A stretch of DNA of 64,000 nucleotides from Peptococcaceae bacterium UBA5757. GTDB taxonomy: Bacteria; Bacillota; Dehalobacteriia; UBA4068. The stretch lies in assembly GCA_002418965.1 (NCBI GenBank), contig DIFD01000022.1:142070-206069 (forward strand). The letters are read 5' to 3'. This document shows, in pieces, positions 10,214-57,977 of the stretch (position 1 is its first letter; each line of letters opens with the position of its first letter). The notes under the pieces were generated by a model. The model did no database searches, was not told where the DNA came from, and saw nothing but the letters and a program-made list of their open reading frames with translations. The position numbers and the translations under genes were made by a program.

Positions 10214-10233
10214 GCACAACACCTCCTCCCTAA

Positions 10234-10503
10234 GGTGACGAGAGTTGAATTAACCCGCCTCTGCCTGGCTAAATTTATGGTTTGCTTTGTTATCCTTTCT
10301 AGGCATACATCAAGTATGCCGTCGTGCTAAAGCTGTACAAAACGCAAATTTTTCTGACGCCGACGGTCGAAGAGTTTTTTGTCTCCAGCCGTACATCCAG
10401 CAAGGCGGATGACGCCGCTTTACTGAATGTAAAGCAAGGGGAATAACACCGCATAGAGTGCGGATGGAGACAAAAAACCGGATTGGATTCGGCTCCCGTC
10501 ACC
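10234..10503 (-). ncRNA. unclassified 270-nt structured RNA element / interspersed repeat, copy 1 (homologous to 55753-56022)
   Basis: ~75-80% identical to the second copy over the full length. Closing helix ggtgacg/cgtcacc plus internal hairpins (ggcatac-atcaa-gtatgcc; gcgg-atgacg-ccgc; gctttac-tgaat-gtaaagc; ccgca-tagag-tgcgg) with compensatory differences between copies. 3' end (minus sense) sits 3 nt from the yqfC SD. Strand is inferred from gene context only. Confidence 0.45.
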
Positions 10504-10529
10504 TTAAACTTATGACTAAATCTGCCAAA

Positions 10530-10565
10530 ATATGAAAGCAGCCCGAAACTTCTTTCGGGCTGCTT
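10530..10565 (-). terminator. rho-independent terminator after the yqfB-position gene
   Basis: Hairpin agcagcccgaaa-cttc-tttcgggctgct followed by a U-run on the minus strand. Confidence 0.6.
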
Positions 10566-54948: not shown

Positions 54949-55728
54949 TCATACGCAATTTTTGATGCGGTAAACTCGAATAGCATTTTCCGTTGTCATC
55001 TTTGTGATTTGCTCTATATCTATGCCGCAAATCTCAGAAAGTTTCCTGGCAACCAAAGACACTCTGGCCGGTTCATTGTTTTTGCCGCGATATGGATGCG
55101 GTGAAAGATAGGGGCAATCCGTCTCGATTAAAAGATGTGCCAACGGTACTTTTTTTGCGACTTCCACCAAAGATCTGGCATTGGTATAGGTAATTGGTCC
55201 GGCAAACGAAATCTCAAACCCTAAACGCATACAGACTTCCGCCATTTCCCAACTACCGGAAAAACAGTGTATAATTCCTCCATTAACGCCGCCACGCTCC
55301 TGTTTTAAGATGCGCATGACATCGCCGTGAGCATCTCGATCATGGATAACGATCGGAAGCGACAATTCCCGCGCCAACTTAATTTGTTCGACAAAAGCAC
55401 GGATTTGGTCTTCTTTTGGCGACAAATTTCGGTAATAGTCCAAGCCGATTTCGCCGATTGCCACAACGTCGGCCGATCTTGCCAGCTCATAGATTTTTTG
55501 CGACATCTTTTCGTCCCAGATCTTGGCGTCATGGGGATGGATGCCGATTACGGCGTGGACCATATCGGGATATTTTTCCGCCAGGCGAACATTCATCAAA
55601 GAGGACGGCCAATCGTAACCGATGGAAGCAATGTGACCGACTCCGGCCTCCTTGGCCCTGGTTAAAACGTCCTCCAAGTCTTTATACAGTTCCGGGTCAT
55701 TCAAATGGGCATGCGAATCAAAAAGCAA
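54949..55728 (-). CDS. tatD: TatD family metal-dependent DNase (YabD)
   Basis: Start taken at TTG giving MLFDSHAHL... (matches YabD N-terminus), preceded by GAGGTG. The ORF-track start at 55770 lies inside the upstream structured element. Confidence 0.88.
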   Translation of the reverse strand: MLFDSHAHLNDPELYKDLEDVLTRAKEAGVGHIASIGYDWPSSLMNVRLAEKYPDMVHAVIGIHPHDAKIWDEKMSQKIYELARSADVVAIGEIGLDYYRNLSPKEDQIRAFVEQIKLARELSLPIVIHDRDAHGDVMRILKQERGGVNGGIIHCFSGSWEMAEVCMRLGFEISFAGPITYTNARSLVEVAKKVPLAHLLIETDCPYLSPHPYRGKNNEPARVSLVARKLSEICGIDIEQITKMTTENAIRVYRIKNCV

Positions 55729-55752
55729 TTCCGACACCTCTTTTTTTTGCTT

Positions 55753-56022
55753 AAGGCGAGGTAAGTGCAACTAATCTGCCTCGGCCTTGTTAGTCTGTGT
55801 TTTGCTTTGTTTTCGTCCTAGGCATACATAAATATGCCTTTCGTCCTCAACCTTGTAAACCGTAAATTTTCACGACGCCGACGGTCGGAGAGTTTTTAGC
55901 TCCTAGCCGTGCGTCAGGCAAGGCAGACGAAGCTGCTTTACCTATGGTAAGCAAGGAGGATAATGCCGCATTGCGTGCGGTTGGCATCTAAAAACCGGGT
56001 TGGGTTTGACTCCCCTTGCCTT
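55753..56022 (-). ncRNA. unclassified 270-nt structured RNA element / interspersed repeat, copy 2 (homologous to 10234-10503)
   Basis: Starts 5 nt after the metG stop and ends 12 nt before the tatD SD. Same hairpin order as copy 1, with compensatory substitutions: closing helix ggcgagg/ccttgcc with one G·U on the plus reading; gcag-acgaag-ctgc; gctttacc-tat-ggtaagc; ccgca-ttgcg-tgcgg. Confidence 0.45.
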
Positions 56023-56027
56023 AAAAT

Positions 56028-57977
56028 CTATTGTACTTTGGTTCCGGCAGGCATGGACGCAACTTCCAAGACTTCCAGGCGGTCTTTGCCCACGGCGGAA
56101 AGCAGCATGCCGTGTGATTCGATACCGCGGATGGTTCTGGGTTTAAGATTAGCGATCAAAATCAGATTCTTGCCCACCAAGTCTTCCGGCTCGTATTGCT
56201 CAGCGATCCCTGCCAAAACAGTTCTTTGCTCATCCCCTACCTGCAACAAAAACTGCAGCAGTTTATCGGCTTTGGGTACTTTTTTGCATTCCAGCACTTT
56301 GACCACACGTAAATCCAGTTTGGCAAAGTCCTCGATCGTAATCTCCTCACCAATGGGTGCAAATTCTTCTTTTATTACTTCTGTTTCTTCTTGAGACTGC
56401 GGTTCTTCTTCCACTACAATAGCCGCTTGTTCGTCGGCTTGCCAATCTATCCGGGGAAACAAAGGCTCCCCGCGGTCTATTTTAACGCCGACCGGGAACC
56501 GGCCCCAACTAAGACTATCCCAGGTCTGGACATCGGTATTGGCAACGATCCCTAATTGCTGCCAGACTCTCTGAGGCAAAGTGGGCATCACGGGCGTAAT
56601 CATAACCGTCACCAAACGGATGACCTCAGCCATATTGTACAAAACAGTTGCCAACTTCTCTTTTTCTTGCGCTTTATTGAGCGCCCAGGGGGCGGCATCA
56701 TCGATATATTTGTTGGCCTTATTCACGAGCTTCCAGACTTCCGCCAGCGCGCCCGCCCATTCCATATGATCCATTAGCTCTTCCACTTTTGCAGGCGTCA
56801 CTTTTGCCAGCTCGATCAAAGACGCGTCAAATTCAGTTCCCGGCCCCGCTGCCAGTACTTCACCGTTTTGAAATTTATTGAACATAGCGGTGGTTCGAGA
56901 AAGCAGATTGCCGTAATCGTTGGCCAGATCCACATTGATACGGCTGACTAAAGCCTCTTCCGAATAAGTGGCGTCGAGGCCATAGCCCATCTCTCTAATC
57001 AAAAAGTAACGGATGGCATCCACGCTGTATTTTTGTACCAAAATAACCGGATCGACCACATTGCCTTTGGATTTACTCATTTTGCCTTCGCCTAAAAGCA
57101 ACCAGCCGTGCGCCATCACTTTTTGGGGTAAAGGAATATCGGCGGCCATGAGGATAATGGGCCAGATGATGGTATGGAAACGGACAATATCTTTGGCCAT
57201 CAAGTGCACATCGGCGGGCCAGAATTTTTGATAAAGAGATTCGTCATCCGTATACAGTCCTAACGCAGAGACATAATTCAGCAAGGCGTCAAACCAAACG
57301 TAGATCACGTGCTTTTCATCAAACGGTACTTTAATGCCCCAATCGAAGGTAGTGCGGGATACGCACAGGTCTTCCAGCCCCTGTTTGACAAAATTAACCA
57401 TCTCGCTGCGGCGATTGGGCGGCTGGATAAAATCGGGGTTTTCTTCAATAAATTGCAGCCAACGATTGGTATATTTACTCATCTTAAAGAAATAGCTTTC
57501 TTCTTTGGTCAGCTCAGCCGGACGACCGCAGTCCGGACAGCAATGGGTTTCTCCCAATTGGCGTTCCGTAAAAAAGGTTTCGCAGGGCGTACAGTACCAA
57601 CCTTCATATTCGGCCTTGTAGATGTCGCCCTGGTCATAAATCTTTTGGAATATCTTTTGGGCAAATACTTTGTGGCGGGGTTCGGACGTACGCAAGAAAT
57701 CATCATATTCGATCTGCATGGTCTGCCACAAATCCTTGATCCCGGCCACGATCTCATCGACGAATAACTGGGGCTCTTTACCTGCCTCTTGAGCACGGCG
57801 CTGAATCTTTTGACCGTGTTCGTCTGTACCTGTTAAAAAATACGTTTCAAAACCCCGCATCTTTTTATAGCGCGTCATGGTATCGGCCGCCACCGTCGTA
57901 TAGGCATGGCCGATATGCAAATTACCGCTGGGATAATAGATGGGAGTGGTAATATAAAATGTAGGTTTTTGGTTCAT
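56028..57977 (-). CDS. metG: methionyl-tRNA synthetase with C-terminal EMAP/tRNA-binding domain
   Basis: Start MNQKPTFYITTPIYYPSGNLHIGHAY (HIGH motif) preceded by GGAGGT, KMSKS motif, C-terminal Trbp111-like domain. The ORF-track N-terminal extension to 58061 overlaps rsmI. Confidence 0.95.
   Translation of the reverse strand: MNQKPTFYITTPIYYPSGNLHIGHAYTTVAADTMTRYKKMRGFETYFLTGTDEHGQKIQRRAQEAGKEPQLFVDEIVAGIKDLWQTMQIEYDDFLRTSEPRHKVFAQKIFQKIYDQGDIYKAEYEGWYCTPCETFFTERQLGETHCCPDCGRPAELTKEESYFFKMSKYTNRWLQFIEENPDFIQPPNRRSEMVNFVKQGLEDLCVSRTTFDWGIKVPFDEKHVIYVWFDALLNYVSALGLYTDDESLYQKFWPADVHLMAKDIVRFHTIIWPIILMAADIPLPQKVMAHGWLLLGEGKMSKSKGNVVDPVILVQKYSVDAIRYFLIREMGYGLDATYSEEALVSRINVDLANDYGNLLSRTTAMFNKFQNGEVLAAGPGTEFDASLIELAKVTPAKVEELMDHMEWAGALAEVWKLVNKANKYIDDAAPWALNKAQEKEKLATVLYNMAEVIRLVTVMITPVMPTLPQRVWQQLGIVANTDVQTWDSLSWGRFPVGVKIDRGEPLFPRIDWQADEQAAIVVEEEPQSQEETEVIKEEFAPIGEEITIEDFAKLDLRVVKVLECKKVPKADKLLQFLLQVGDEQRTVLAGIAEQYEPEDLVGKNLILIANLKPRTIRGIESHGMLLSAVGKDRLEVLEVASMPAGTKVQ

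Follow-up and report, generated by a model that had tools for sequence, protein, structure and literature searches.

A structured repeat between metG and tatD in Peptococcaceae bacterium UBA5757 is probably an ageing copy of an uncatalogued MITE-like family

We analyzed a window of 64,000 nucleotides (nt) from Peptococcaceae bacterium UBA5757 (contig DIFD01000022.1, positions 142,070 to 206,069) and report here on a structured, non-coding element that fills most of the spacer between metG and tatD. Both genes lie on the minus strand of the window, and "sense" is used below for this strand of the flanking genes. The upstream gene, metG (56028..57977), encodes 649 amino acids (aa) according to the call of the Joint Genome Institute (JGI) and ends in a TAG stop codon at 56028-56030, and tatD (54949..55728) encodes 259 aa from a TTG start codon at 55728. 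The element between them, copy 2 of the repeat, occupies 55751..56024 on the minus strand, 274 nt including a terminal TTAA on either side; an initial annotation of the sequence had placed it at 55753-56022, which our analysis reproduces apart from the terminal TTAA. We conclude that copy 2 is probably an ageing copy of an uncatalogued, non-autonomous mobile repeat family resembling MITEs (miniature transposable elements with inverted repeats), the full form of which is about 270 bp long.

The coordinates, distances, and closing-helix details of the initial annotation proved right to within 2-3 nt. The metG stop codon (the reverse complement of 56028-56030) lies 5 nt from the end of the element as first drawn and 3 nt from the terminal TTAA. 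On the other side, the Shine-Dalgarno sequence GAGGTG of tatD (55735-55740) and its TTG start at 55728 are as described, with 12 nt between the Shine-Dalgarno sequence and the element as first drawn, or 10 nt up to its TTAA. Searches against NCBIfam confirmed the identities of metG, tatD, ksgA, yqfC, and yqfD. The JGI call for tatD is 273 aa long and starts at a TTG (55770) inside copy 2; this call is too long, since the NCBIfam profile match begins at residue 16 and homologues have 255-259 aa. No terminator-like site was predicted in the metG-tatD spacer. Given this result and the lack of room in the spacer, copy 2 is probably co-transcribed within a metG-tatD-yabE-ksgA message.

A second copy in the window, which the initial annotation had also noted, was the only significant result of an in-window blastn search with copy 2 (10231-10508, same strand, 74.6% identity over 280 nt, E = 1.6e-40; all remaining matches had E > 0.6). 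This copy 1 (10230..10507, minus strand, 278 nt) lies between the terminator of a yqfB-like gene and the ribosome-binding site of yqfC. The intrinsic terminator (10536..10565, minus strand) is strong, with a 13-bp stem and a T tail, and directly precedes a candidate sigma-E-type promoter (TCATATT-14 nt-CATAAGTT; 10507..10535, minus strand) that abuts the 5' end of copy 1, its -10 box touching the end of the repeat. The candidate was judged by what we take to be the sigma-E consensus. If the promoter is real, copy 1 may form the 5' leader of the sporulation gene yqfC.

Further copies were reached by walking outward from the window, by a profile search for spurious open reading frames (ORFs) within the repeat, and by fetching the contigs on which such ORFs lie. 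For the ORF search, protein collections were queried with a profile of the translated frame of the element, which recovered spurious ORFs of 36-71 aa inside other copies. Together these approaches identified nine family members, four in the source organism and five in a Clostridiales metagenome-assembled genome (MAG; GCA_026419635.1). The source organism is a spore-forming member of the Bacillota whose best foreign TatD match is 64% identical, and it has no close relatives in the protein collection. The window also forms part of a 218-kb JGI contig (SCADCLC_10003601, sample 3300002219), which, to judge by its name, probably stems from the metagenome of an oil-sands culture that degrades short-chain alkanes (for context, see PMC4161757). 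The third copy of the source organism, c3 (L085:6571-6721, 150 nt), lies 10 kb to the right of the window, flanked by genes for an HD-domain protein and a HAD hydrolase, and retains both ends and one internal arm (arm B, described below) with about 130 nt missing. The fourth, c4 (L091:10021-10170, 150 nt), was read from a contig of 51 kb in another JGI sample, which also carries the source organism; it lies between spoVAE and priA, antisense to both, and consists of the 5' 125 nt of the element joined to a short 3' end.

The MAG carries four copies of the class of about 270 nt and one mini form. Copy m1 is upstream of a yabM-mazG-hbs-yabO-yabP-yabQ-divIC cluster, m2, which is truncated at its 3' end, follows a flagellar gene and faces a convergent gene, m3 (L093:1-271) is 160 nt upstream of yqfC-yqfD, and m4 is upstream of argC, which is on the opposite strand. 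The mini form (L093:5312-5384, 73 bp), between era and recO, is reduced to its termini, a perfect 20 bp on each side of 33 nt. Thus, the two distinct 150-nt internal-deletion forms and the 73-bp form all retain both ends. A 49-aa ORF call (L093, 5160-5309) adjoins the mini form. The neighbors of the copies are functionally unrelated and include sporulation, flagellar, arginine-synthesis, and tRNA-synthetase genes. Relative to adjacent genes, six copies are in the sense orientation, one is antisense, and one is unassignable. Among several options, the initial annotation had listed a MITE-like repeat. This option is borne out by the seven further copies, which vary in size, have unrelated surroundings, and are spread over two distant genomes.

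Other searches did not extend the family. A profile search with nhmmer found no further copy at any of the loci examined, and the terminus motif had no other occurrence in the window or in 94 loci. Exact-pattern scans with a 24-nt block common to both window copies returned only chance matches of about 20 nt (10 to CCGACGGTCGNAGAGTTTT in genome contigs, 66 to CGCCGACGGTCGNAGAGTT in metagenome contigs, and one in viral contigs), all in unrelated, mostly GC-rich DNA; the block differs among the MAG copies, and the scanned collections do not include the source contigs. A second scan of the viral contigs with an improved two-block pattern gave no match, and BLAST searches of phages and plasmids with copy 2, copy m4, and the terminus returned nothing or noise. 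The profile of the translated repeat also had false positives, namely long tandem-repeat proteins (1236, 284, and 291 aa) that are apparently translated from unrelated repetitive DNA.

The ends of the repeat follow the pattern [T/A]TAAGG…CCTTA[A/G/C] wherever they are intact. The terminal inverted repeats, TTAAGG(Y)G… and …C(R)CCTTAA, comprise 13-28 paired bases in the full copies. Every intact copy has TA or TTAA at both ends and no direct repeats outside of them; because TTAA is itself palindromic, a target-site duplication would be inseparable from the inverted repeat. The TAA stop codons of the HD-domain gene next to c3 and of spoVAE next to c4 fall within the terminal TTAAGG/CCTTA, as expected if the target is TAA- or TTAA-containing DNA at gene ends. 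When the element and one TTAA are taken out, the reconstructed spacers are ordinary-looking and about 20-30 nt long, and that between metG and tatD reads TAG-ATTTTAAGCAAAAAAAAGAGGTG.

Comparison of orthologous spacers showed that the repeat is present at some sites and missing at others. The initial annotation had named an empty metG-tatD spacer of about 20 nt in relatives as a sign that a mobile element had inserted, and we found a spacer of 9 nt in one relative (L083) and an unrelated one of 254 nt in another (L079). Between era and recO, the spacer of the source organism is element-free and 35 nt long, whereas that of the MAG measures 443 nt and includes the mini form. The Zn-ribbon/yabM spacer, which holds m1 in the MAG, is without the element in a relative of the MAG (L095, about 75% nucleotide identity in the flanking genes), and here the homology picks up exactly past the right-hand TTAA of the element. 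The element is therefore missing at three orthologous spacers.

The copies also group by host. Identities among the MAG copies are 89-92%, those between MAG and source copies are 69-75%, and copies 1 and 2 share 74% in the identity matrix. Two copies precede yqfC, copy 1 in the source organism and m3 in the MAG. We considered whether this pair is orthologous, and the identity matrix gave no support for that. That the copies group by genome and the yqfC-upstream pair are not mutual closest relatives indicates recent amplification within a genome.

The family has several of the properties by which MITEs are recognized. Known MITEs are shorter than 500 bp, carry terminal inverted repeats, yield transcripts with stable stem-loops, and are co-transcribed with their neighbors (PMC10969869). 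Likewise, the members described here are 73-280 bp long, lack a conserved ORF, have terminal inverted repeats, are dispersed, and vary in presence and absence between orthologous sites. The ends TTAAGG…CCTTAA pair as a closing stem of about 26 bp, inside which lie the two hairpin arms. In our reading, the element would spread by transposition into TA- or TTAA-containing intergenic DNA, often at a stop codon or before a ribosome-binding site, and would multiply within the genome, with some copies afterwards losing internal parts while keeping both ends. Copy 2 would have inserted into a metG-tatD spacer of originally about 25-30 nt and then been carried passively in the metG-tatD-yabE-ksgA transcript.

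The repeat does not encode a protein. In both window copies, each of the six frames is interrupted by stop codons, and the longest ORFs of the two agree in neither frame, start, nor stop. For this reason, the 46-aa ORF that JGI called inside copy 2 (55847..55987, minus strand) is spurious. That the element could be a small protein gene is suggested by this call and by NCBI ORFs of 56-71 aa in the MAG copies, but the positions of start and stop codons vary between copies, copies 1 and 2 differ by a frameshift, no Pfam domain is present in the ORFs, and the deletion forms lose the ORF altogether, so that we give this explanation next to no chance. The repeat has also interfered with the calls for its neighbors. 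The HAD hydrolase gene beside c3 (L085:6694-6741) is called from inside the repeat in two ways, as 234 and 229 aa, and its start is likely the TTG about 20 nt past c3, behind AGGGGTG.

Known structured RNAs were sought as well. The initial annotation had named an Rfam match as a finding that would overturn it, and a search of Rfam 15 returned no match at gathering scores across the window. With E-value reporting, copy 2 had chance-level matches only and the two MAG copies searched, m2 and m4, had none. A TTCGA motif resembling a T-loop in the closing stem raised the possibility of a tRNA-like origin, which we rejected after ARAGORN found no tRNA or tmRNA in any element.

The full-length copies share a predicted three-way fold. 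An RNAalifold analysis of five full-length copies gave near-identical helices on both strands, with 77 shared pairs, and both strands of both window copies are more stable than shuffled sequences (z from -4.1 to -7.2; 0/200 shuffles fold as well). The consensus consists of a closing stem of about 26 pairs, arm A (a helix GGUUUUUUG/CAAAAAAC, an extension, and an apical hairpin), and arm B (two helices and the hairpin GGCAUAC…GUAUGCC). In copy 2, the closing stem (P1/P2) is formed by a 5' arm at 55996..56023 (UAAGGCAAGGGGAGUCAAACCCAACCCG), whose helix is common to both strands, and a 3' arm at 55752..55778 (CAGAUUAGUUGCACUUACCUCGCCUUA). Arm A (55892..55995) contains the long-range helix GGUUUUUAG/CUAAAAAC with its extension, the apical hairpin P4 (55935-55952), and a conserved unpaired motif, UCCUCCUUGCU (55950-55960). 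Arm B (55779..55884) comprises helices P5 and P6, hairpin P7 (GGCAUAU…AUGCC, 55821-55838), and the most conserved block of the element, AAAAACUCUCCGACCGUCGGCGUC. These features are given on the minus strand, as is a weak sigma-70-like site inside arm B that faces tatD (TTTACA-17-CATATT, 55831..55859); we regard it as a lead only, and the alignment shows weaker counterparts in other copies.

Base-pair covariation supports this fold. In an alignment of eight sequences, 86.7% of the cells pair and 13 pairs are doubly compensated, five of them in the closing stem and six in arm A, compared with 7.5±1.9 in shuffled alignments (0/500 as high) and 1-4 in slid-partner controls. Because the 13 compensated pairs exceed both kinds of control, the pairing is real and maintained. 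Individual copies differ in how much of it they retain. Copy m4 has 72 Watson-Crick pairs and one G·U among 75, and the lineage behind the MAG burst is about 97% paired despite a divergence of about 28% from copy 1. Copy 2 is old and partly degraded, with 56/75 Watson-Crick pairs and 8 A·C mismatches on the gene strand, and its closing stem shows several C·A mismatches on the minus strand.

The initial annotation had pointed out that the closing helix of copy 2 contains a G·U pair if read on the plus strand and a C·A mismatch on the minus strand, and had called the transcribed strand ambiguous. The helix TAAGGCGAGG/CCTTGCCTTA indeed has one of each, and the ambiguity stands, given the near-identical helices on both strands and the lack of bias among independent substitutions. 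Across the shared helices, we counted 17 G·U, 38 A·C, and 29 other mismatches on the gene strand. Assigning the strand from G·U vs. A·C counts was abandoned, as the counts conflict between copies and independent substitutions are unbiased. The folding energies of individual copies also disagree, with c3 favoring the gene strand, copy 2 the opposite strand, and copy 1 neither.

An independent family of small-RNA genes transcribed from the plus strand of the window, antisense to the neighboring genes, would draw on some of these numbers. On that strand, the consensus fold gains some stability (-97.5 vs. -85.2 kcal/mol), the shared helices hold more G·U-compatible mismatches (38 vs. 17, counts that are not independent events), and P7 has a GNRA loop (GCGA or GUGA) in the MAG copies. 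Nevertheless, the copies have neither a conserved promoter nor a conserved terminator beside them on the plus strand, recent independent substitutions show no bias (11 vs. 6, p = 0.33), and deletion derivatives and a termini-only form do not suit an RNA gene. We consider such a gene family extremely unlikely.

A cis-regulatory RNA, such as a riboswitch-like or protein-binding leader that applies a common signal to the downstream gene, also has points in its favor. In three source copies, a ribosome-binding site follows the end of the element after 1-10 nt, and yqfC-yqfD is preceded by a copy in both of the distant organisms. The motif UCCUCCUUGC is conserved, looks like an anti-Shine-Dalgarno sequence, and is unpaired in the prediction, and the fold contains the 13 compensated pairs. 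The downstream genes, however, are functionally unrelated, c4 is antisense, m2 sits at an operon end facing a convergent gene, and m4 is upstream of an argC on the opposite strand. The distance from the element to the start codon ranges from about 10 to 160 nt, the deletion forms drop either arm while keeping the ends, relatives have no element in the orthologous spacers, and Rfam offers no match. The position and orientation of the copies are thus inconsistent, and the stems of the MAG copies show no sign of purifying selection (see below). A regulatory leader is, in our judgment, very unlikely. The initial annotation had argued against a metabolite riboswitch from the unrelated operons downstream, and the unrelated neighbors, the varying orientation, and the element-free orthologous spacers uphold that argument.

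Substitutions private to single MAG copies provide a view of what happened after insertion. Such substitutions affect 22/572 paired site-copies (3.8%) and 18/443 unpaired site-copies (4.1%; Fisher p = 0.87), and three quarters of them are transitions. Nearly all of those that fall in stems lead to a mismatch (A·C in 11 cases, G·U in 6, and another kind in 2; the 11 A·C vs. 6 G·U show no strand bias, p = 0.33), and only one pair was compensated. Decay of the young, inserted MAG copies is therefore neutral, a pattern that speaks against a function for the host at the individual loci.

This pattern bears on the possibility that the repeat is a domesticated element of the host's mRNAs, its transcribed fold, with a closing duplex of about 26 bp, being kept for the host's benefit. 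It could then be a place where RNase III or RNase Y processes the transcript, could determine transcript stability, or could insulate against translational coupling, both from metG to tatD and in the yqfC leader. The gene-strand folds of the window copies are very stable (-91.5 and -108.2 kcal/mol; z = -4.1 and -6.6), the sense fold of c3 (-48.1 kcal/mol, z = -2.3) is much more stable than its antisense fold (-34.6 kcal/mol, z = -0.3), six of the seven orientable copies are sense to their neighbors, and transcripts of the Correia and ERIC repeats are cut by RNase III or RNase E (PMC10969869). The six of seven is not significant (two-sided p of about 0.13), and most copies were found through sense-strand ORFs. 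Moreover, the stems of the inserted MAG copies decay, the closing stem of copy 2 is already degraded, and relatives manage without an element at the metG-tatD junction. A domesticated mRNA element is accordingly quite unlikely, and the RNA-level roles put forward in the initial annotation, in RNase processing or as a coupling insulator, found no support. Copy 2 probably has no adaptive role. The repeat is probably selfish DNA carried in a transcript, not a gene switch.

The simplest reading of a pairing that is maintained in the lineage and lost from inserted copies is that the fold is needed for propagation and not by the host. Alternatively, the compensated pairs may have arisen without selection, by correction of quasi-palindromes through template switching. 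The same logic of pairing for propagation has been proposed for REPINs, and the compensatory changes reported for the Bacillus repeat bcr1 are compatible with it (PMC3184786).

Several observations weigh against a mobile MITE-like repeat. The GC content of the elements is 47-55%, compared with 44.7% in the window, and so they lack the AT-richness that is typical, if not obligatory, of MITEs. The compensated pairs extend across the whole fold and not over the termini alone, which is not what a plain MITE mobilized by a DDE-type transposase predicts. The element is about 72% identical between the two hosts despite only 52% identity for PhoH and 24% for YqfD, and conservation above that of the host proteins calls for constraint or for horizontal transfer. 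That both hosts should have a copy ahead of yqfC has an estimated probability of about 0.005 under random placement among roughly 3000 intergenic regions; these two copies differ in position, one being 1 nt before the ribosome-binding site (source organism) and the other 160 nt before the start codon (MAG). The available assemblies of the source organism are all alike (100% identity over the parts compared), so that no strain polymorphism is seen. Finally, no transposase or autonomous partner with these termini was found in roughly 170 kb of the two host genomes.

The compensated whole fold, the conservation above that of host proteins, and the shared yqfC site leave room for structure-dependent mobilization or a master RNA. 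The family could thus be a structure-dependent mobile element of a kind not previously described in Firmicutes, whose propagating lineage must keep the entire three-way fold of about 270 nt and not the protein-binding ends alone. We consider this unlikely, with enough of a chance to keep it in sight. If it were true, it would imply one of three things: that a folded intermediate of single-stranded DNA or RNA serves in mobilization, that the element has spread horizontally among distant Clostridia, or that a single functional master RNA gene gives off decaying copies, as in short interspersed elements (SINEs).

Returning to the interpretation as a MITE-like repeat, we compared the family with described bacterial repeats. 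By analogy, it appears to behave most like bcr1 of the Bacillus cereus group and Correia of Neisseria. Like the family described here, bcr1 and other "group A" repeats (Klevan 2007; Kristoffersen 2011, as summarized in PMC3184786) are intergenic, non-coding repeats of a Firmicute with a non-conserved genomic distribution. Furthermore, bcr1 is transcribed with its neighbors and has a cruciform-like fold kept by compensatory changes (PMC3184786), paralleling the compensated pairs found here. It differs in being about 155 bp long with clear 5-bp direct repeats, compared with about 270 bp, a three-way fold, TTAAGG/CCTTAA ends, and no separable target duplication in our family; the comparison with bcr1 is one of descriptions.

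The Correia repeats (also NEMIS) are MITEs with TA-containing ends and long terminal inverted repeats that occur next to genes in full and internally deleted forms (PMC10969869), all of which applies to our repeat. They are co-transcribed, their termini are a substrate of RNase III, and some copies carry promoters (PMC10969869). In contrast to our family, they are proteobacterial, about 105-155 bp long, contain an IHF site, and number hundreds of near-identical copies; the repeat described here is larger, is Clostridial, and its source-genome copies are only about 74% identical. ERIC shares the imperfect palindrome, the location in intergenic regions, which are transcribed for ERIC and probably so here, and size variants that arise through internal insertions and deletions. 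Unlike our repeat, it is a 127-bp enterobacterial element with mostly conserved positions and little current mobility, and the two have no sequence relation.

REPINs with their RAYT genes and palindromic elements derived from IS200/IS605 resemble our family in another respect: the propagating lineage keeps its hairpin pairing and inserted copies decay, as expected if the mobilizing enzyme recognizes a folded single strand. However, REPINs are simple hairpins of about 70-110 nt made from two REP sequences and accompanied by a RAYT gene, and we found no HUH gene (RAYT or TnpA) in the loci examined. The terminal inverted repeats argue against an IS200/IS605 origin, since derivatives of these elements are without them. 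RUP of Streptococcus pneumoniae, which is mobilized by an IS630 family member, likewise comes from a Firmicute, and is a MITE that has terminal inverted repeats and TA on either flank, but it is 107 bp long and its termini match a known insertion sequence; we know of no insertion sequence that matches the termini of our family. The repeat forms a new family within a kind of element already known, and no sequence evidence places it in any named family.

As such, the family would be a Clostridial counterpart to bcr1, Correia, and ERIC. Its copies separate the ribosome-binding sites of sporulation and housekeeping genes from the promoter or stop codon that precedes them, where they do no obvious harm. 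It is unusual in that the propagating lineage keeps the whole fold and inserted copies decay neutrally, which makes it a useful case for asking what the mobilizing enzyme recognizes. A family model would also remove annotation errors in related Clostridia, including the spurious ORFs of 36-71 aa called by JGI and NCBI and the N-terminally extended JGI calls for tatD and the HAD hydrolase.

Some further observations concern the sites at which copies were found. An ORF of 143 aa antisense to metG (55963-56394, plus strand) begins inside copy 2 directly after AAGGAGG, the complement of the conserved motif UCCUCCUU; it is probably spurious, as its ATG is missing from copy 1 and from the MAG copies. 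The metG-tatD junction is variable across the group. In the closest TatD relative (L079:9747-10000), the spacer contains five tandem AGGAATT units, whose inverted complement, in the form of CATTCCT units, lies beyond a GC hairpin and produces a large terminator-like palindrome unrelated to the repeat. In another relative (L081/L082:6006-10000), metG and tatD are split by a heavy-metal P-type ATPase gene, an ArsR-type regulator gene on the opposite strand, and two small ORFs. The relative that is without m1 has 216 nt of a different, hairpin-rich sequence with three perfect hairpins at that site (L095:6776-6991), and within it the stretch "…GCGACACCTTAA" looks like a right terminus of the repeat standing alone. 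The Zn-ribbon/yabM spacer seems to be a hot spot for palindromic insertions.

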